From a virus, in UHGV virus genome UHGV-1567921: a stretch of DNA of 11,891 nt. One strand, written 5' to 3'. The position numbers were made by a program, and so were the translations under genes. The notes beneath the pieces were generated by a model. It searched no databases. It was not told the DNA's origin and saw only the letters and a list, made by a program, of their open reading frames with translations. Below are positions 72 through 6,719 of this stretch, piece by piece (position 1 is the stretch's first letter; each line of letters opens with the position of its first letter).

Positions 72-776
72 TCACTGGTTGCCTCCTTTGCGAATCTGTT
101 CCGCCCATTCTTCAAGGGATTTCTCCGCATATTTACCGGACAGACCATCAATCGGGTGCGGTTCATTAGCCAACTCTTTTTTCGCTGACAAAATCATGCG
201 TGTAACGTCGAAAACTTCACGCAAAGACTTATTGATAAATCCGTGATTGAACGCAGCAGCAAGACGGCTGGCGGTATAGTTAATCCCCTCGTTGCGTGCT
301 TCCGCACGAATTTCAGCCAGAAAAGCATCGGTAGCTGGAGTTTCGCTGTGGTGTAGGGCATCGTTGATAATCATTGCAGCAACACCAGCCTGCCCTGCAT
401 CCGTGACCGACACATGCTCAAGAGTTACGGCCATTGCGTGTTTCAGCCCGGCGTTCTCTGCCACCAGCGCCGCGAGCTTAGTCTCAAGCGGTGCTATTCG
501 GCACATAGCATCAATATTTGTGTCCTCCAGGCGCTTAATTTCACCAAGTAGCTCCAGTGCAACCTTTGGGTTGAATGCGGCAACATAACGAGCGTTGTTC
601 TCTGCGTTTTTCAGCCCATCAAAGCCGGTCCATTTGATAACATCTTCACATCGTTTATCACCGGGCGTATGCACAGCATACGTACCTGTACCCGTCGAAA
701 TAAACGCGACCCATTCGCCCTGTGTTGCCTGTTTTGCTATCTCACGTAGTGCCTGATAGTTAATTTTGGTTGTCAT
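72..776 (-). CDS. Ea22-like coiled-coil accessory protein (234 aa); family assignment tentative
   Basis: ORF 72..776, stop TGA at 72-74. Its ATG (774-776) overlaps the stop of the upstream gene in an ATGA arrangement. Segments INYQALREIAKQATQGEW and NARYVAAFNPKVALELLGEIKRLE resemble Ead/Ea22-family prophage proteins from memory; no search was run. Confidence 0.55.
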   Translation of the reverse strand: MTTKINYQALREIAKQATQGEWVAFISTGTGTYAVHTPGDKRCEDVIKWTGFDGLKNAENNARYVAAFNPKVALELLGEIKRLEDTNIDAMCRIAPLETKLAALVAENAGLKHAMAVTLEHVSVTDAGQAGVAAMIINDALHHSETPATDAFLAEIRAEARNEGINYTASRLAAAFNHGFINKSLREVFDVTRMILSAKKELANEPHPIDGLSGKYAEKSLEEWAEQIRKGGNQ

Positions 777-1651
777 GCCACCACCTCTTCGAATTTCAAC
801 TCCAATTGATCACCCCAGATTTCACATGACTCTGAACACGAGCCGGTATCGAATCGCCTGGCTTGCACCATCGCCTGATACAAATTTCTGTAGTCGCTGT
901 CGGCATACATTCTGGCAATCCCGTCAAGGCTCAGATGACCACGGTACATAACGTCTTTATTTGTCTTTCGGTGACCATCCCGGACGTGTTTACCTGTAAC
1001 CAGTTCATTAAAAACCCGCATCAGACCAGGTTCGTCTTTACATGCAAGCCCCAGCTTTTGCGTTGACTTTTTGATGCAAAAAACACAGTTCCCTAGGTGC
1101 TCCGGGATTTGCAAATCAAAAGGTTGTTTTCGCCACCACCGGATAACATCCGACTTATCAAAATCTGACAGCTCTGCAAGATACCGGACGCCCGGTTTCG
1201 GTTTCAGCCTGCGGTGTTCGTCCGCACGAATACCCAGCCATGTGATGTAATTCCCTCGCCCAAAATGGTCATCGCAATATTTCGTGAAAGGGGTGAGTTT
1301 TAGCCTGTCAGTACAGAACGCGCCGCCGATGTATGGCGTACCGTACTTTTTAACCATGTCCATAAACGGTTTAAGCACCGGCATTCGCGTCTGAATATCC
1401 TTTGGTTCCCATTCCGTATAACCATTTGGCTGCCCAAGTTCTGGATTTATATCGACCTGCAACACCGTTAGCGGTACGTTCCAGAACTTCACAACCTCAC
1501 GAATAAAGCGATACGTCAGAGGATGTTCACAGCCGGTATCCATAAAAATGAAATGGACGCTAGCGCCAGCTTTTCGCTGTGCTTCCATCAGATGAACGAG
1601 ATAAGCCGATGTTCGTCCACCTGAAAAGCTGACGACTTGATGCATACTCAC
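773..1651 (-). CDS. PAPS-reductase-like PP-loop ATP pyrophosphatase family protein (292 aa)
   Basis: PP-loop motif SFSGGRTS near the N-terminus and FMDTGCEHPLTYRFIREV, matching the CysH-type xxDTGxxFPETYxFI block. GTG start at 1649-1651 with AGGAA 6 nt upstream; alternative ATG at 1643-1645. The stop overlaps the next gene start (ATGA at 773-776). Confidence 0.85.
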   Translation of the reverse strand: MSMHQVVSFSGGRTSAYLVHLMEAQRKAGASVHFIFMDTGCEHPLTYRFIREVVKFWNVPLTVLQVDINPELGQPNGYTEWEPKDIQTRMPVLKPFMDMVKKYGTPYIGGAFCTDRLKLTPFTKYCDDHFGRGNYITWLGIRADEHRRLKPKPGVRYLAELSDFDKSDVIRWWRKQPFDLQIPEHLGNCVFCIKKSTQKLGLACKDEPGLMRVFNELVTGKHVRDGHRKTNKDVMYRGHLSLDGIARMYADSDYRNLYQAMVQARRFDTGSCSESCEIWGDQLELKFEEVVA

Positions 1652-1654
1652 GGT

Positions 1655-2383
1655 TTATTCCTGAATGCGCTTAAACTCGATTACCCACACCCAGGGATTA
1701 GCGTTCCAGCTTTCTTCACCATAGATGGATTCCCACAGGCGCTGGAACGCAACCTTGGCCATTGCGAAATCCCCCTTGGGAGTAAGGAATGTTCCCGGGT
1801 GATCAGGAAGCAAACTTCCAGCAGGCGGAACGCCCTCAGCCCTTGCATCGCATTCGCTGATATCGTTCAACCGTTCAACGCGCACGTTGGTAATTTCCAA
1901 CAGAATGCGTGATGCCCATCGCGGCATGTGAATTGATGGACGCCACCCACCATCAAACTTTTCATTCACAGTGTGAGGTTTCCAGTCGGCATCATCGGGT
2001 ATCGACCATAAGCCGTAATCACCAGGTTTTTGCTCGCAACTGGCCCGATAAATCCTTGCTGCGTTCTTCTCATCGCCACGACAAAGGTTGTCGTTCCAGT
2101 CCACACTGCAACCATCCTCATTGCCTAATATCGCCCATGTTTCACGAACCCAAATTCGATCGCCGACGATACCAAATGGGCAATTGAAAACACTGCTTAC
2201 ACCATCAGCCCCGTACCACTGAAAACCTGCACCAATTTTTCTAACCATCACTGGTGCTTCTGGACCAACTTCCGCAGGCTGATTTTTCATTATCCGCCGC
2301 GTCTGCGTTTTCCTTCCTTCGAGGATGGCCCGGACCATCTCATCGTTGAAAATCATGCCGCGCTCTTTCACTTCGCCTTTCAT
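1655..2383 (-). CDS. ASCH (PUA-like) domain protein with a large internal insertion (242 aa)
   Basis: N-terminal MIFNDEMVRAILEGRKTQTRR and C-terminal WVWVIEFKRI match the two ends of the ASCH fold (compare E. coli YqfB ...ILAGRKTITIR... and ...YVIEFK). ATG at 2381-2383 is preceded by GGGGGA. Stop TAA at 1655-1657 lies 3 nt before the next start. Confidence 0.8.
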   Translation of the reverse strand: MKGEVKERGMIFNDEMVRAILEGRKTQTRRIMKNQPAEVGPEAPVMVRKIGAGFQWYGADGVSSVFNCPFGIVGDRIWVRETWAILGNEDGCSVDWNDNLCRGDEKNAARIYRASCEQKPGDYGLWSIPDDADWKPHTVNEKFDGGWRPSIHMPRWASRILLEITNVRVERLNDISECDARAEGVPPAGSLLPDHPGTFLTPKGDFAMAKVAFQRLWESIYGEESWNANPWVWVIEFKRIQE

Positions 2384-2392
2384 GCATCCCCC

Positions 2393-2479
2393 TTACCCAT
2401 GTGCGACGATGCCGCCAAAAGTGATAGAGAACAGCCAGAAATAGATCGCGGCCATAATGATTTTGAATGCCGTGTTCAT
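2393..2479 (-). CDS. Small hydrophobic protein, 28 aa (MNTAFKIIMAAIYFWLFSITFGGIVAHG), probable single-pass membrane peptide
   Basis: Not in the supplied ORF track (too short). ATG at 2477-2479 with AGGAG 8 nt upstream. Stop TAA at 2393-2395 is followed directly by the GGGGGA Shine-Dalgarno of the ASCH gene, which suggests translational coupling. Confidence 0.4.
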   Translation of the reverse strand: MNTAFKIIMAAIYFWLFSITFGGIVAHG

Positions 2480-2506
2480 ATTTTCAGCTCCTGTGATTGA
2501 TTGGAT

Positions 2507-2540
2507 ACATGCCGCGCCTTGCGGCATGTTTTTATTTTCA
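2507..2540 (+). terminator. GC-rich hairpin followed by a T-tract on the plus strand (intrinsic-terminator-like); on the minus strand it is a 5' UTR stem-loop
   Basis: ACATGCCGC (2507-2515), loop GCCTT, GCGGCATGT (2521-2529): perfect 9-bp stem, followed by TTTTATTTTC (2530-2539). The T-tract is only on the plus-strand side. Confidence 0.45.
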
Positions 2541-2548
2541 CTTTCTCT

Positions 2549-2578
2549 GTTTTAAAAATCAAGATTTATTAGAGCAAT
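2549..2578 (-). promoter_or_regulatory. Copy (a) of the recurring intergenic element ATTGCTCTAATAA-N-TTTTTAAAAC (read on the minus strand); candidate promoter or regulator site
   Basis: The minus strand reads ATTGCTCTAATAAATCTTGATTTTTAAAAC. It matches copy (c) at 4690..4719 at 28 of 32 positions with identical spacing (TTGCTC, 17 nt, TAAAAC). It lies about 100 nt upstream of the next leftward ORF. Confidence 0.35.
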
Positions 2579-3084
2579 TATTGTTGGTGGAGAAGCGCGT
2601 TTTCATACTCCCTGACCATTAACGTAAGTACGCCGTGACTCCTGAAAACACGCGCCACTTCAATCTTATCTTCCAGCGCGAACGCAATTTTACTTAGACC
2701 AATTTTCTTCAGGAGATCAATCTTTGCTGGACCGTCATTTCTGTCATCGGTGGCAGGACGCATAGATAGCAAAGGCTCAGCCCCGTTTGTTACGTACTTC
2801 CGCAGCCAGGCTCGTGTTTTATCCCTTGCGATCTCACAGCGCCCGGTTACAAACCAGACCGTGTAAACGTTAAATAACTGGCGCACCATATCAATAACCG
2901 GAGTGATGGGAGTATCGGTGTCACAGGCGAGATTAAACTCGTTCCAGTCCTTTGTTAATGCACCTTTACCTGGTGGCGGAAGCAAATGCAGTCTGTCTTC
3001 AGTTGCCTCTGATATTGTTCCATCAATATCAACTATGACGATATACGGACGTTCCTGGTGTGCGTGTTTATTGAAAATACTCAA
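2578..3084 (-). CDS. HAD-superfamily phosphatase (168 aa), possibly polynucleotide 3'-phosphatase or nucleotidase-like
   Basis: HAD motif I IVIVDIDGTISE (DxDGT), motif II WFVTGR, and a later K and an ED pair consistent with motifs III/IV. TTG start at 3082-3084 preceded by GAGGAGGG. Stop TAA at 2578-2580. Confidence 0.8.
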   Translation of the reverse strand: MSIFNKHAHQERPYIVIVDIDGTISEATEDRLHLLPPPGKGALTKDWNEFNLACDTDTPITPVIDMVRQLFNVYTVWFVTGRCEIARDKTRAWLRKYVTNGAEPLLSMRPATDDRNDGPAKIDLLKKIGLSKIAFALEDKIEVARVFRSHGVLTLMVREYENALLHQQ

Positions 3085-3103
3085 ATGCCCTCCTCATTGG
3101 ACG

Positions 3104-3137
3104 AAAAAAATGCTGGTGGGCGCACTCCACCAGCATT
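3104..3137 (-). terminator. Rho-independent terminator for leftward transcription
   Basis: AATGCTGGTGG (3109-3119), loop GCGCACT, CCACCAGCATT (3127-3137): perfect 11-bp stem. On the minus strand it is followed by a run of 7 T (plus-strand A-tract 3104-3110). It sits between the 420-aa gene stop (3157) and the HAD gene start. Confidence 0.6.
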
Positions 3138-3156
3138 AAAAGTGACACTGTAACTG

Positions 3157-4419
3157 TCAGCGAACGTAAATAGTGCCGCCGTTCTCTTTTTCCCATGCAT
3201 CGCTACGTGCATAGCAAACATCGAGAAGTCTTCTTGCCGCTGTTTCCTCTAAACCCAATTCGACAACCAACTGCTCATGACGGCGGGTAACCACATCAAA
3301 CAGGGTATGCAACCCTTTAGTTGCCAGATCATCAATGAATTCCGGTTCGAACGGCAGCTCTGCATCTGCCAACATAACCTCTTGCGCCCACTCAACTCGA
3401 CGGACCAATTCCGGGCGGCGGCTTTCCATCTCTTTACAGATCAATTCATGGAAGAACTCTACCCAACCTTCCGGCTGGAACTCGCGGAAAATGGCCAGCG
3501 GCTGGAAGTTTGGCATCAACCATTCGTTGATTCGGATATCAATGGCATAGCCCATGTCGCAGCAGAACTGATAAGCAAAGTCCAGCTTAGAAACGATATA
3601 AGGACGCTCGTTATTGAACTCTTTAGGCGATGAGATCCCATAAGCCAGGAGGCGCGGGAAGAAGGAGATTTGCCCTAACGTCGGATGAAGTTTGCTTGCA
3701 GGGAAACGGCGCTCAGTAATGCCATACATTTCCTTCTTGAGCGTCGCAAATTTGGCATTCTCATTAACCAGCGCGGTAACCTCTGCTTTTTTATTAGCAA
3801 ATGCCACGCGCGCTTCGCTTGCATCTTTAATAGTTTTTTTGAGCTGTTGGTTAAGGTCGGCGACCTGCTTACGCAGTTCCTGTCGCTCGCTTTTAGCTTT
3901 GTTATAGCGTTTCTCAAGGTTAAAAGGATCAAGTTTCATGATCTCTTTATATTGAGATTTTAGCGTTGAAATCTGTGAGTTCCGCAGTTCAACCATCGCG
4001 GTCATTTCATTGAGTTTTGTTTCCAGCTCAATGCTTATACGTTCGGCATTATCAGCACGCTGGTTGGCGTCATGCGTCGCATCGTCGATCGCGTCCTGTT
4101 GCTGGCGTTTCAAATGTTCAATTTGTAGCTGAAGCTCTTCAATTTCTTTACCCTTCAGACCGAGATCCAACTGCATATTTTCAGCTGCATCTACCAGGGA
4201 GTTATGGCTATCAGCTTCTGCGTTATAAACATCAATAAGCTGTGCGTGAAGCATCTCCGCTGACTGAACCGCATTATCAAAAAAACGCGCTGTGAGGTCA
4301 TCACAACTAACGCGGCGTTGCGCGGCCCGGATGTTCTGGATAATGGCCGGGATACCGGCATTCAGGACGTCAGGGATAGATACATTTTCGATTGATTGGT
4401 TTTGTGCTGAAGTGCTCAT
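3157..4419 (-). CDS. Hypothetical protein, 420 aa: long central coiled coil plus C-terminal globular domain, function unknown
   Basis: Long ORF filling the interval with consistent operon packing. The central ~170 residues are heptad-like and rich in E/K/Q/L (EIEELQLQIEHLKRQQQD... KQVADLNQQLKKTIKD...). The C-terminal ~180 aa is aromatic-rich with no motif I recognise. ATG at 4417-4419; stop TGA at 3157-3159. Confidence 0.85.
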   Translation of the reverse strand: MSTSAQNQSIENVSIPDVLNAGIPAIIQNIRAAQRRVSCDDLTARFFDNAVQSAEMLHAQLIDVYNAEADSHNSLVDAAENMQLDLGLKGKEIEELQLQIEHLKRQQQDAIDDATHDANQRADNAERISIELETKLNEMTAMVELRNSQISTLKSQYKEIMKLDPFNLEKRYNKAKSERQELRKQVADLNQQLKKTIKDASEARVAFANKKAEVTALVNENAKFATLKKEMYGITERRFPASKLHPTLGQISFFPRLLAYGISSPKEFNNERPYIVSKLDFAYQFCCDMGYAIDIRINEWLMPNFQPLAIFREFQPEGWVEFFHELICKEMESRRPELVRRVEWAQEVMLADAELPFEPEFIDDLATKGLHTLFDVVTRRHEQLVVELGLEETAARRLLDVCYARSDAWEKENGGTIYVR

Positions 4420-4420
4420 T

Positions 4421-4639
4421 TCAAAGTTCCGTATTAGCTTGTGCTTCGGTCATTTTTCCTAAGTATGAAGGAGGAAGGACTACGCAATTTGTATCCAGTC
4501 CCTCACCTATGGCAGCCTGTAAAATTCTGGCTAAGGTGAGTCTCTTGTTGCGATACCTGGTGATGACATGCCTGATACCGCCGGTCGGTGTAACAAAGGC
4601 GATCAGCCAGTAGTGATATTTCCGTCGGAATGGCCACAT
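4421..4639 (-). CDS. Hypothetical small protein (72 aa)
   Basis: ATG at 4637-4639 with AAGGTG 4 nt upstream. Stop TGA at 4421-4423 is 1 nt before the ATG of the 420-aa gene (coupled). No recognisable motif; composition unremarkable. Confidence 0.4.
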   Translation of the reverse strand: MWPFRRKYHYWLIAFVTPTGGIRHVITRYRNKRLTLARILQAAIGEGLDTNCVVLPPSYLGKMTEAQANTEL

Positions 4640-4653
4640 AGTGCACCTTGTAA

Positions 4654-4719
4654 ATTGCTCTAATAAAAAACGTGATGAGTGTACATCACGTTTTAAAAAT
4701 ATGGAATTATTAGAGCAAT
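4654..4719. repeat. Nested palindrome: 13-bp inverted repeat ATTGCTCTAATAA / TTATTAGAGCAAT enclosing a terminator hairpin
   Basis: ATTGCTCTAATAA at 4654-4666 and its exact reverse complement TTATTAGAGCAAT at 4707-4719. Between them lies a 7-11 bp stem (CGTGATG / CATCACG, extendable with AAAA/TTTT) at 4667-4694. Confidence 0.7.
4665..4699 (-). terminator. Rho-independent terminator downstream of the GT-A-like gene (mainly leftward; weak bidirectional potential)
   Basis: Stem CGTGATG (4671-4677) / CATCACG (4684-4690), loop AGTGTA. On the minus strand the stem is followed by TTTTTTATTA; on the plus strand by TTTT then A-run. Confidence 0.55.
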
Positions 4720-4720
4720 C

Positions 4721-5422
4721 TTATTCTGATTCTCGCTCAAAAAATGAGCTGATAAGGGGAAGCCAATCCTCTGACACTTCGCGAGGTCGCGGTTTGCCGT
4801 GGAAAAAGATTATTCGGCAGTCTTTTGGTAATGCCCCATTCCCCCTGGAGTAACGCGCGCTCGCATATTTTGAACCAGGTTCCACAACATCGGCCTTGTA
4901 ACTTACAAACCATCCTGGATACAGATCCTGAAATGCTGGTGTATCATCGCCCATAACCTTTCGTAAGAACCCCTGGTCACCCCAGCACTCAGTAGTGACA
5001 CAACGAGAAATCCAACCTTCCGGATCTTGCCAGAATGAACTCCAGATATGCGCTTTAACACTATTTGGTATCCACAGGGCACCGCTGCCACGATATTGTG
5101 GATGGTAAAAATCCCTAAGCATGGTGAAACTGGTTGGTGGATGCTCTAGGATTGGGCGTATATCACCGGCAATAACCGTGTCCAAATCCAGATAGAACAG
5201 ATCATCGGTTATATCCGGTCGGAACAACTCGATTTTCGCCCACCAGCCACGGCACTTTTGCCACTGGTTGATCAATGGGATAACTTTGACGCCAGGTACA
5301 TGTAAACACTTCAGGTCTGTCAGGCAAATAATTTCATAGTCTTTTGGCAGTTGATTAACCAGCCACTGCACATCGGAAGCGTTATAGTCACCACCAGAGC
5401 GAAGAACTAAAGCAATCTTCAT
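4721..5422 (-). CDS. Putative GT-A fold (GT8-like, DxD) glycosyltransferase, 233 aa, soluble
   Basis: [11 protein letters not shown] resembles the GT-A DxD nucleotide-sugar motif (compare LgtC ...VLYLDIDVLV...). The N-terminal [17 protein letters not shown] resembles the GT8 N-terminal strand-loop. No transmembrane segment seen. The ATG at 5420-5422 forms an ATGA overlap with the phosphatase stop. Confidence 0.7.
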
Positions 5423-6096
5423 GCTGCACCATCACCTTTCACTTTCATCAATGTCAGGTTTCCGCAAAATACGGCACCAGTGTCGATATACTGCTGATTC
5501 CAGAATGTCTTCGGGCTTTTCACCGGAGTGTGACCAAAGATAAAACGATCTGCGCCCGAAATTTCGCCACCAATATCATCCATCGAATCACTGATACGCT
5601 CGCGCGCCCAGACAACGTTGAAAAGCGGCACCTCCTTACCGAATTGGTATTCATTATCCGGATAGTCGGCATGGGCTATAACGATAGTTTCTTGCCCCGT
5701 GTTCAACTCAATGATATAGGGCAGACGCTTTACCAGCTCCACCAGCGCCCAGGCTAATATTTCCTGATCAGTGTCCAGCATGAAGAACCATTGTCCGCCA
5801 TTCATTAGCCAGTTATTCACGTTGCCATCTGGACTTAACGCATCAATCATCAGCCGCTCATGGTTCCCCATCACTGCCCTGAACCAGGGCATCTGCAATA
5901 GTTCCAGACATTCGACATTTTCAGTACCGCGATCGATAAGGTCGCCGACCGATATCAGTAAATCCTGCGCCGGGTCAAAATCCACACGATGGAGTTCGGA
6001 CATCAGTCTGGTGTAGCAACCATGCAGATCACCAACAACCCAGACATTCCTGTATTTGGTACCGTCGATACGGTGATAAATTGTGGGTGCCATCAT
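5419..6096 (-). CDS. Ser/Thr protein phosphatase, lambda PPase-like (PPP / calcineurin-like metallophosphoesterase)
   Basis: PPP signature motifs GDLHG, GDLIDRG and GNHE, with overall colinearity to lambda ORF221 phosphatase as I recall it ([16 protein letters not shown]... [21 protein letters not shown]... [13 protein letters not shown]). The likely start is ATG 6094-6096, forming an ATGA overlap with the upstream stop; the track's longer start at 6111 adds 5 residues. Confidence 0.9.
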
Positions 6097-6719
6097 GTAT
6101 TCTTCAGCCATTCTTTAAGAGTCATCTGCGGAATACCTCCCATTTTCCCGCATGAAACAACGTCAATCTGTTCACGCGCAGACTGGAATAACAAAGGCAG
6201 GTGACTTAGATTTTTTGGCGTGCCGCCGGAGTGAACGCGTAGTTCTTGCGTAGCGTCAACGCCCACCAGAGCTACATGTTTGAATCCGATATGGAAAGCC
6301 AGGTTCAGAGCACCATATGCACTATTGCCGCTGGCAATTTCATTCTCATCTTCGCAAAGGCCGAAATGTGCGGACCAGCGCCACGCCCACCACTCGGGAG
6401 AATTCGTATTTTTTGGCTCCATGCCGCGTTCAGCCACACGACGGAAGCACAGAACGCCATCTCTGACTTCACGTTCTTTAACATCGGGTAGTGCCATGCA
6501 ATAACAAACACCACGGCGACGGCGGCCACGACCAACGCGCCGCATATTGTCTGGGGATGGATCAAGGGTGAAAAAATAAGAAGCGCGGTTAAGCCAGTCG
6601 ATGGCCCCATTGACCGCTATAATCGGCACTCCGCGCGGCGCAACAAAGTTTGCGGCGCTTGGGCCACTGCCGACGATAATAACGCGATCACTGCCTCTAA
6701 ATTTATTCTTGGGAAACAT
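6093..6719 (-). CDS. Putative nucleotide-sugar glycosyltransferase, CstII (GT42) / MptE-like (DUF115) fold, 208 aa; paralog 1
   Basis: N-terminal [14 protein letters not shown]...VPIIAVNGA resembles the CstII sialyltransferase N-terminus (VIIAGNGPSL...). [26 protein letters not shown] resembles the CstII block TSGVYMCAVAIALGYKEIYLSGID. Clearly paralogous to the next gene. Confidence 0.7.

Follow-up and report, generated by a model that had tools for sequence, protein, structure and literature searches.

Two phosphatase genes, both on the minus strand, were found in the 11,891-nucleotide stretch of viral DNA that was analysed here (the window; UHGV-1567921). They lie 2.3 kb apart and are the known genes pap and ppp. 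Over the region in which they are found, the phages P1, P7, SJ46 and vB_EcoM-813R1 had 98.7-99.3% nucleotide identity with the window. The genes and regulatory sites are the following.

2562..2578, minus strand: C1 operator (P1 Op88 / OpmgT) that differs from the consensus at one position and is annotated in both P1 and P7; it abuts the pap stop codon, and the next operon begins here
2578..3084, minus strand: pap, 168 amino acids, a stand-alone HAD (DxDxT) phosphatase of the T4 PseT / PNKP 3'-phosphatase type; annotated as pap in P1 and P7
3109..3137, minus strand: intrinsic-terminator-like hairpin in the pmgS-pap intergenic gap, an 11-bp stem followed by a U run; MFE -27 kcal/mol, z = -2.7
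3157..4419, minus strand: pmgS (P7 shtB), a coiled-coil protein, non-essential
4421..4639, minus strand: pmgR (P7 shtA), a small protein, reported as essential by knockout
4654..4719, no strand given: C1 operator pair Op86b and Op86a with the promoter PpmgR; matches at 4654-4670 and 4703-4719
4721..5422, minus strand: pmgQ (P7 hdmD), glycosyltransferase-like, PHROG 1962 at 1.1e-127
5419..6111, minus strand: ppp, 230 amino acids, a lambda-type (NinI-like) binuclear metallophosphoesterase; annotated in P1 and P7
6093..7279, minus strand: pmgP and pmgO, upstream in the ppp operon, both MptE-like / Maf-type glycosyltransferase-like

The earlier note had described two phosphatase reading frames within 3.5 kb, one of the HAD and one of the PPP type. 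Both are present within that distance and both family assignments were correct, as judged from the matches to PF25109, Pfam Metallophos and 1G5B. What the note had missed is that these are named, long-annotated genes of the model phage P1; both have reportedly been annotated from the P1 genome of 2004 onward. The block with pap and ppp was present in 582 of 5,426 complete E. coli genomes (~11%), nearly always on P1-like plasmids.

The pap gene starts with a TTG codon that is preceded by a GAGGAGG ribosome-binding site. With its 168 residues, Pap consists of the phosphatase domain only; it contains all four HAD motifs and lacks a P-loop 5'-OH polynucleotide kinase domain. Pap matched the Pfam family HAD_PNKP (PF25109) with an E-value of 7.8e-12 and 46 bits, where the cut-off is 27.6 bits, and the profile of the Pap family gave E-values of 3.8e-6 with Pnkp1 and of 1.3e-5 and 9.4e-5 with the phosphatase domain of T4 Pnkp. 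When the AF2 model of Pap (pLDDT 92) was analysed with Foldseek, the best match was 5UJ0 (E 1.4e-7, TM 0.61-0.74), followed by 4XRU and then by class B/C acid phosphatases at E ~1e-4. A signal peptide was not seen by eye at the N-terminus (MSIFNKHAHQERPY...). The catalytic motifs were located as follows.

3016..3030, minus strand: motif I, DIDGT (residues 19-23); in the alignment to 5UJ0, D19 corresponds to the T4 nucleophile Asp165 and D21 to the acid/base Asp167
2839..2847, minus strand: motif II, T80-G81-R82, aligned with T4 Ser211-Gly212-Arg213
2722..2724, minus strand: motif III, K121, aligned with T4 Lys258
2668..2673, minus strand: motif IV, E138-D139, aligned with T4 Asp277-Asp278; the first acidic residue is Glu where T4 has Asp

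The residues D19, D21, T23, R31, K121 and D139 were invariant among 29 homologues with identities to Pap down to 31%. In the T4 Pnkp phosphatase, Asp165 is the nucleophile, Asp167 the acid/base and Asp278 a Mg2+ ligand (PMC3592404). By homology, Pap is predicted to be a Mg2+-dependent DxDxT acyl-phosphatase of the T4 PseT 3'-phosphatase type. Asp19 would attack the 3'-phosphomonoester of a nucleic-acid end or of a 3'-nucleotide to form an aspartyl-phosphate, with Asp21 as the acid/base, while Thr80 and Lys121 would hold the phosphate and Asp139 the Mg2+ ion, leaving a 3'-OH as the product. Polynucleotide 3'-phosphate ends, one of the substrates that the earlier note had considered, fit the T4 PseT-type family of Pap as given by Pfam, profile and Foldseek. 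A mononucleotide would be an equally likely substrate, because the next-best structural matches of the model were mononucleotide-hydrolysing enzymes, the class B/C acid phosphatases.

Ppp matched Pfam Metallophos at 9e-16 and PHROG 246 'NinI-like' at 5e-113. The match to the lambda phosphatase 1G5B had an E-value of 1.5e-94 and covered the full length, residues 11-229 against 3-221, with 142 of 219 residues identical (65%). The N-terminal half was also similar to ApaH-type Ap4A hydrolases. The three sequence motifs were found at these positions.

6019..6033, minus strand: GDLHG, with D28 and H30 aligned with lambda positions 20 and 22
5926..5946, minus strand: GDLIDRG, with D57 and R61 aligned with lambda position 49 and Arg53
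5857..5868, minus strand: GNHE, with N83 and H84 aligned with lambda position 75 and His76

The residues H147, R170 and H194 align with lambda positions 139, 162 and 186, and every aligned catalytic position of the lambda enzyme that was checked (20, 22, 49, 53, 75, 76, 139, 162, 186) is kept in Ppp. What Arg53 and His76 do in the lambda enzyme is described in PMC2190708. The lambda enzyme is a metal-dependent phosphoprotein phosphatase in vitro and converts nucleoside 2',3'-cyclic phosphates to 2'- and 3'-NMP; its own physiological substrate is given as not known (PMC2190708). As a likely orthologue of lambda NinI and a Mn2+-type binuclear metallophosphoesterase, Ppp would dephosphorylate phosphoproteins and may also open nucleoside 2',3'-cyclic phosphates. 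The substrate assignments are by homology, with 65% identity between Ppp and the lambda enzyme and about 20% between Pap and the T4 enzyme. The searchable literature yielded no biochemical assay of either enzyme from P1. Position 6096, given by the earlier note as the end of its region, is an in-frame ATG that is used as the start in one P1 record (678-nt CDS).

Four matches to the C1 operator were found in the window, compared with 0.05 expected by chance. The genes pmgO, pmgP, ppp and pmgQ are in one operon behind the operator Op83; the pmgP stop and the ppp start overlap by 19 nt, and the ppp stop and the pmgQ start by 4 nt (ATGA). The Op86b/Op86a pair lies between the ppp operon and the pmgR-pmgS(-pap) unit, and the two phosphatases are therefore in two different C1-repressed operons. 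The "one accessory block" of the earlier note holds for the closeness of the genes but not for a single unit, since pmgQ, pmgR and pmgS lie in between and the operator matches split two transcription units. The pap gene is downstream of the terminator-like hairpin. Because both are in C1-repressed units, pap and ppp would be switched on once repression is lifted.

The two genes are inherited apart. In the Cronobacter phage JK004, the series pmgL-M-O-P-Q-R-S-pap is kept at 52-81% amino-acid identity, whereas ppp is found nowhere in the genome and pmgO-pmgP-pmgQ are contiguous. Phage D6 has ppp at 86% identity without pmgO, pmgP and pmgQ, and a Pap-like HAD was not detected there by tblastn or by profile HMM. 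Pap and Ppp are therefore encoded by independent modules and not by a conserved pair, and should not be taken for members of one pathway. The position of ppp between pmgP and pmgQ would be that of a mobile lambdoid cassette.

Plaque formation on laboratory hosts requires neither gene. In a published CRISPRi knockdown the plating efficiency was 1.2 for ppp and 0.77 for pap, with no plating defect. Published in-frame deletions of pap and of ppp plated normally and left anti-restriction unchanged, and deletions of pmgO, pmgP and pmgQ also plated normally. These tests were done on laboratory hosts and therefore leave room for a role against a defence system that is absent there. Among the PADLOC defence models, neither Pap nor Ppp had a match.

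The search for an RNA ligase or polynucleotide kinase partner, which the earlier note had suggested, was negative in P1, P7, 813R1 and the window. A kinase-domain HMM found no P-loop polynucleotide kinase in the six-frame ORFs of these four sequences, and detected the JSE pseT at 1.9e-24 as the positive control. T4-type RNA ligase 1 (Rnl1) gave no match at E<=10 in the same ORFs. A Pfam scan of 44 poorly characterised P1 proteins, the only search that covered Rnl2, showed no ligase, RtcB or kinase domain. No protein kinase was found in P1-type genomes, and no RNA ligase is annotated in the P1-type genome records examined. The counter-defence and repair reading of the earlier note is left without support: partner genes are absent from these searches, the pair is not conserved, deletions and CRISPRi cause no plating defect, and the deletions do not change anti-restriction.

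It is very unlikely that Pap is a counter-defence RNA end healer that clears 2',3'-cyclic or 3'-phosphates from RNA ends made by anticodon nucleases or HEPN RNases of the host, for resealing by a ligase, as T4 PseT does with Rnl1. Its membership in the PseT-type phosphatase family would agree with such a function, as would the healing of RNA>p ends by the T4 Pnkp phosphatase (PMC3592404) and the tRNA genes in P1-type genomes, which hint at a conflict over tRNA. However, Pap has no kinase domain, the P1-type searches yielded no P-loop polynucleotide kinase, Rnl1, ligase or RtcB, and the pap deletion plates normally. In addition, the host ligase RtcB requires the 3'-phosphate that Pap would remove. 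Phage JSE has a stand-alone copy beside nrdB as well as a full pseT and rnlA, which suggests that the stand-alone form does a different job. An end healing split between the two enzymes, where Ppp would turn 2',3'-cyclic phosphates into monoesters from which Pap removes the 2'- or 3'-phosphate, is hardly credible. The genes are close (2.3 kb), the lambda phosphatase hydrolyses nucleoside 2',3'-cyclic phosphates (PMC2190708) and the T4-type HAD takes off 2'- and 3'-phosphates alike, but the latter also opens cyclic phosphates alone (PMC3592404). The two genes are in different operons, and pap occurs without ppp in JK004 as ppp does without pap in D6. To our knowledge, lambda has NinI without a HAD partner.

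For Ppp, it is unlikely that the enzyme undoes phosphorylation by host Ser/Thr kinases, including a kinase-based abortive-infection defence, or breaks down a nucleotide signal. The activity of the lambda phosphatase on phosphoproteins in vitro and its cyclic phosphodiesterase activity (PMC2190708), the resemblance of the N-terminal half to ApaH-type Ap4A hydrolases and the behaviour of ppp as a mobile accessory gene (D6 versus JK004) are consistent with such a role. On the other side, deletion and knockdown of ppp had no phenotype on K-12 hosts, and the literature searches revealed no experimental link and no in vivo role; the missing PADLOC match is uninformative for an anti-defence gene. That Ppp joins the glycosyltransferase-like pmgO, pmgP and pmgQ in one modification pathway, or acts in head morphogenesis as the old pmg/hdm names imply, is most improbable. 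The overlaps with pmgP (19 nt) and pmgQ (4 nt) and the shared operon behind Op83 would favour the pathway; in the P7 record, ppp is entered as a 'putative head morphogenesis' phosphatase. Against this, pmgO-pmgP-pmgQ are contiguous without ppp in JK004, D6 has ppp without these three genes, and deletions of all four plate normally.

The window is very probably a segment of a P1/P7-type phage-plasmid whose known genes pap and ppp encode unrelated enzymes that are chance neighbours in the P1/P7 lineage and no functional pair.

Stand-alone Pap-like 3'-phosphatases form a very large phage family, with 7,477 clusters at 50% identity, and are encoded in roughly 1,175 deposited phage genomes, chiefly those of T1-like, Drulisvirus and P1-like phages with no kinase or ligase partner nearby. 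No characterised member of this phage family was found. Because the kinase domain is absent, Pap-like proteins are over-annotated by the common database label '3'-phosphatase, 5'-polynucleotide kinase'. We consider it distinctly unlikely that these proteins share an undescribed role, for example in counter-defence, by stripping 2',3'-cyclic or 3'-phosphates off cleaved RNA or off a 3'-phosphorylated nucleotide signal, or in salvaging the 3'-nucleotides that arise when host nucleic acid is degraded. If they did, P1 Pap would be an experimentally tractable member of the family, since a clean pap deletion already exists. As a discovery the locus is small: P1 is among the best-studied phages, and its pap and ppp are named, annotated and already deleted. 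The existing P1 deletion mutants would be a handy entry to the substrates of lambda-type and stand-alone PseT-like phosphatases in infected cells.

Compared with known systems, Pap of the window has 97% amino-acid identity with P1 Pap ('P1 acid phosphatase'). It has the DxDxT fold in common with the C-terminal 3'-phosphatase domain of T4 PseT (PDB 1LTQ, 2IA5, 5UJ0), where D165, D167, S211, K258 and D278 correspond to D19, D21, T80, K121 and D139. Unlike Pap, T4 PseT has an N-terminal P-loop 5'-kinase domain, a motif IV with D-D instead of E-D and an RNA ligase partner, which is missing from the P1-type genome. Pnkp1 of the bacterial Pnkp1-Rnl-Hen1 RNA repair complex (PDB 4XRP, 4XRU) was the best profile match and the second-best structural match, with 28% identity over the HAD domain. 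It is, however, a kinase-phosphatase fusion that acts in a complex with ligase and Hen1, and such partners are not present here. The class B/C bacterial acid phosphatases AphA and e(P4) are HAD nucleotidases with a small cap similar to that of Pap, and the name 'acid phosphatase' probably comes from this resemblance. They are secreted enzymes or lipoproteins of the periplasm, whereas Pap shows no signal peptide by eye and scores better against the PNKP family. The ppp gene of the window is essentially identical to that of P1 and P7, with 98.7-99.0% nucleotide identity over the region and no difference to report. Ppp has the same GDxHG, GDxxDRG and GNHE motifs as the lambda Ser/Thr phosphatase (NinI / orf221, PDB 1G5B). 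The two differ in their genomic setting, since ppp is located between glycosyltransferase-like genes under C1 control and the lambda gene in the nin region.

The two phosphatase genes of the earlier note, one of the HAD type and one of the lambda-like PPP type, were both confirmed with their quoted motifs on the minus strand, which carries every gene from 72 to 8269. The family calls also held, with both proteins scoring above the Pfam curated cut-offs (HAD_PNKP, PF25109, 7.8e-12; Metallophos, 9e-16). The genes, their motifs and the matches to the operator consensus of the P1 repressor C1 are as follows:

2562-2578, C1-operator match abutting the pap stop codon, equal to Op88 of P1
2578-3084, minus strand, HAD ORF (pap), 168 aa
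3016-3030, minus strand, DIDGT motif of Pap
4654-4670 and 4703-4719, C1-operator matches between pmgQ and pmgR, equal to Op86b and Op86a of P1
5419-6111, minus strand, PPP ORF (ppp), 230 aa
5857-5868, minus strand, GNHE motif of Ppp
5926-5946, minus strand, GDLIDRG motif of Ppp
6019-6033, minus strand, GDLHG motif of Ppp
8327-8343, C1-operator match, equal to O26 of P1

The end of the block had been placed at 6096, which is an in-frame ATG and the start codon in one P1 record. As an observation the finding is correct, and the genes were already known: GenBank records of P1 and P7 name the HAD ORF pap, 'putative acid phosphatase', and the PPP ORF ppp, 'serine/threonine protein phosphatase, by homology; 64 pct identical to phage lambda...'. 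Between them lie pmgQ, pmgR and pmgS (hdmD, shtA and shtB in P7), and pmgP, pmgO and pmgN are found upstream of ppp.

When the stretch 2400-6300 was compared with deposited phages by megablast, 19 records matched at least 80% of it, with identities of 99.3% to vB_EcoM-813R1, 99.1% to Salmonella phage SJ46, 99.0% to P7 and 98.7% to P1. Rightwards from about 1689, the whole window matches the same phages likewise. Judged by these matches, the window is a segment of a P1/P7-type phage-plasmid of the genus Punavirus. Out of 5,426 complete genomes of E. coli, 582 contained the 3.5-kb block (coverage of at least 80%), with 792 of its 810 places on plasmids; 574 PLSDB plasmids carried it as well.

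The homology to P1 ends at about 1689, inside a pmgT-like ORF (1655-2383), and the left arm (1-1688) differs from P1. It is a mosaic accessory cassette with an Ead/Ea22-like gene at 72-776 and a PAPS-reductase-like gene at 773-1651. The latter gave an SspD-like match in PADLOC (1.4e-13) and a weak DndC match, and at the DNA level it shares about 90% identity with genes from Shigella phage Ss-VASD and from several Escherichia podophages. Among deposited genomes the closest is vB_EcoM-813R1 (ON470617.2), where the product names are displaced by one gene at 26354-30790: the pmgT-like ORF bears '3'-phosphatase, 5'-polynucleotide kinase', pap bears 'PmgS' and pmgQ bears 'Ppp'. Many of the genes annotated in this record are also split, which suggests frameshift errors. 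P7 (AF503408) has a 'putative tyrosine protein phosphatase', upf87.6, at 4513-5157, next to pap in its variable arm. With it, some P1-type genomes would hold three genes of phosphatase type in a span of about 5 kb; the window lacks this gene. In a P1 isolate deleted for res and mod (OP279344, engineered or variant), two ORFs that carry an EAL and an AraC-type HTH domain stand in the place of these genes at 3525-5150.

The C1 operators were used to assign the genes to transcription units. Four consensus matches were observed in the window against 0.05 expected by chance. Op83, upstream of pmgN, gave no match at up to 3 mismatches to the consensus used, and its placement was taken from the P1 annotation. 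Because of the operator positions, ppp belongs to the unit pmgN-O-P-ppp-pmgQ, and pap to the one after it, behind pmgR-pmgS. Within its unit ppp overlaps both neighbours, by 19 nt at its start (with the end of pmgP) and by 4 nt at its stop (with the beginning of pmgQ). In the gap that separates the pmgS stop codon from the start of pap, a terminator-like hairpin was found on the minus strand (3109-3137; an 11-bp stem followed by UUUUUU), and 3' of it a GAGGAGG ribosome-binding site and the TTG start of pap. No terminator is listed at this hairpin among the features of the P1 and P7 records. A strong hairpin at this place implies that pap would be expressed by read-through or at a lower level.

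A search of the PDB with the single Pap sequence was weak and gave mostly spurious matches to a de novo TIM barrel, so that a profile was needed. The profile, built from 11 homologues, matched Pnkp1 from the Pnkp1-Rnl-Hen1 repair complex at 3.8e-6, and also the phosphatase domain of T4 Pnkp (5UJ0, 1.3e-5; 1LTQ, 9.4e-5). DIDGT of Pap aligned with DVDGT of T4, and T80-G81-R82, K121 and E138-D139 with Ser211-Gly212-Arg213, Lys258 and Asp277-Asp278. In the T4 enzyme, Asp165 acts as nucleophile and Asp167 as acid/base, the phosphate is contacted by Ser211 and Lys258, and Asp278 holds the Mg2+ (Das and Shuman, PMC3592404). Across an alignment of 29 sequences, with identities to Pap as low as 31%, D19, D21, T23, R31, D57, W93, R109, D113, K121 and D139 were invariant. 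The AlphaFold2 model on this alignment had a mean pLDDT of 92 and superseded an initial model on 11 close homologues (pLDDT 70.6). In Foldseek, the PDB structures closest to this model were the 3'-phosphatase domain of T4 Pnkp (5UJ0, E 1.4e-7) and Pnkp1 (4XRU); the class B/C acid phosphatases e(P4) and AphA came next. No NCBIfam model exists for Pap. By the profile alignments, the invariant residues and the structural matches, Pap is a HAD phosphatase of the PseT type that stands alone.

When 1.84 billion representative proteins were scanned in full with HMMER, 7,477 clusters of Pap homologues were returned at E<=1e-3; the top 150 matches were mostly stand-alone proteins of 145-170 aa, with a few kinase fusions of about 300 aa. 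By tblastn, Pap-like genes were found in 1,175 deposited phage genomes, chiefly T1-like phages, Webervirus and Drulisvirus, and in the Drulisvirus KP-Rio/2015 the gene lies amid DNA-metabolism genes. The T4-like phage JSE (NC_012740) has a stand-alone Pap-like HAD gene (4013-4489) directly after nrdA-nrdB; an entire pseT, together with rnlA, lies some 2-4 kb farther downstream. Since JSE has this copy in addition to the full pseT and rnlA, the stand-alone form is suggested to do something other than RNA repair, and the arrangement hints at a role in nucleotide metabolism. Literature searches returned nothing relevant on the in vivo role of stand-alone phage HAD 3'-phosphatases.

The earlier note had proposed that the phosphatases might serve in counter-defence or, together with a ligase or polynucleotide kinase, in RNA repair. 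The defining partners of RNA repair are missing. Neither a ligase nor a polynucleotide kinase appears in the P1 gene lists, and 44 P1 proteins whose function is vague or unknown, joined into 10 pseudo-proteins, showed no ligase, RtcB, P-loop polynucleotide kinase or protein kinase domain in a Pfam scan ('Serglycin' matches were artefacts of the GS linkers). A local kinase-domain HMM, built from the kinase halves of fused homologues, detected JSE pseT as a positive control (1.9e-24) and found nothing at E<=10 in the six-frame ORFs of P1, P7, 813R1 and the window, nor did JSE Rnl1 as query find anything in them. In published work, ppp served as a known non-essential control, and CRISPRi gave plating efficiencies of 1.2 for ppp and 0.77 for pap, both scored non-essential (Piya et al. 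2023, PMC10695390). In-frame deletions of both genes were made by Gonzales et al. (2022; Table S1, PMC9024508), where 24 of 29 knockouts had no plaquing defect and unchanged anti-restriction, the exceptions being pmgA, B, C, G and R. Nothing found here supports the counter-defence or RNA-repair reading, though either might apply on natural hosts.

The two genes were also considered as a conserved pair, which was rejected on whole-genome scans of two other phages. In Cronobacter phage JK004, a diverged P1 relative, pmgL, M, O, P, Q, R, S and pap stand in the same order with 52-81% amino-acid identity; pmgQ directly follows pmgP, and no Ppp homologue was found anywhere in the 93.8-kb genome. D6 encodes a Ppp that is 86% identical, amid lambdoid-type accessory genes, and its 91-kb genome showed no Pap-like HAD by tblastn or with a profile HMM that readily detects pap in P1 and JK004. 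Because of these gene contents, ppp in the P1/P7 lineage is a mobile NinI-type cassette between pmgP and pmgQ, and pap travels with pmgR-pmgS.

In the window, ppp sits amid three glycosyltransferase-like genes (4721-5422 and 6093-7279, minus strand), still called 'putative morphogenetic'. PmgO has a PHROG match labelled alpha-2,3-sialyltransferase and a weak MptE-like (DUF115/Maf) match, PmgP a weak MptE-like match, and PmgQ a PHROG glycosyltransferase match and a DLD motif; sequence searches of the PDB with PmgQ and PmgO gave no significant match. In a single E. coli genome, one of the genes under the match carries the PGAP product name 'motility associated factor glycosyltransferase family protein'. 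All three are non-essential early genes. A functional membership of ppp in this set was rejected on the JK004 and D6 comparison.

Ppp aligned with the lambda phosphatase structure 1G5B (E 1.5e-94) over residues 11-229 on 3-221, with identity at 142 of the 219 aligned positions. At a constant offset of +8, the lambda positions 20, 22, 49, 53, 75, 76, 139, 162 and 186 fall on D28, H30, D57, R61, N83, H84, H147, R170 and H194 of Ppp. Positions 20, 22, 49, 75, 139, 162 and 186 are listed here as catalytic positions of the 1G5B structure. The roles of Arg53 and His76 were described by Keppetipola and Shuman (PMC2190708), who state that the physiological substrates of the lambda enzyme are unknown and that it also hydrolyses nucleoside 2',3'-cyclic phosphates. 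PHROGs classes Ppp as 'NinI-like serine-threonine phosphatase' (5e-113), and the NCBIfam equivalog cut-offs of PrpA and PrpB were not reached. Literature searches on the in vivo role of NinI or lambda phosphatase returned nothing relevant.

Taken together, the best-supported mechanism is the homology-based chemistry of two independent enzymes, expressed after C1 repression is lifted. Ppp would act as a lambda-type binuclear metallophosphoesterase, and Pap, independently of it, as a PseT-type aspartyl-phosphate 3'-phosphatase. In contrast to T4 PseT, Pap has no kinase domain, and the common database name '3'-phosphatase, 5'-polynucleotide kinase' is therefore an overstatement.
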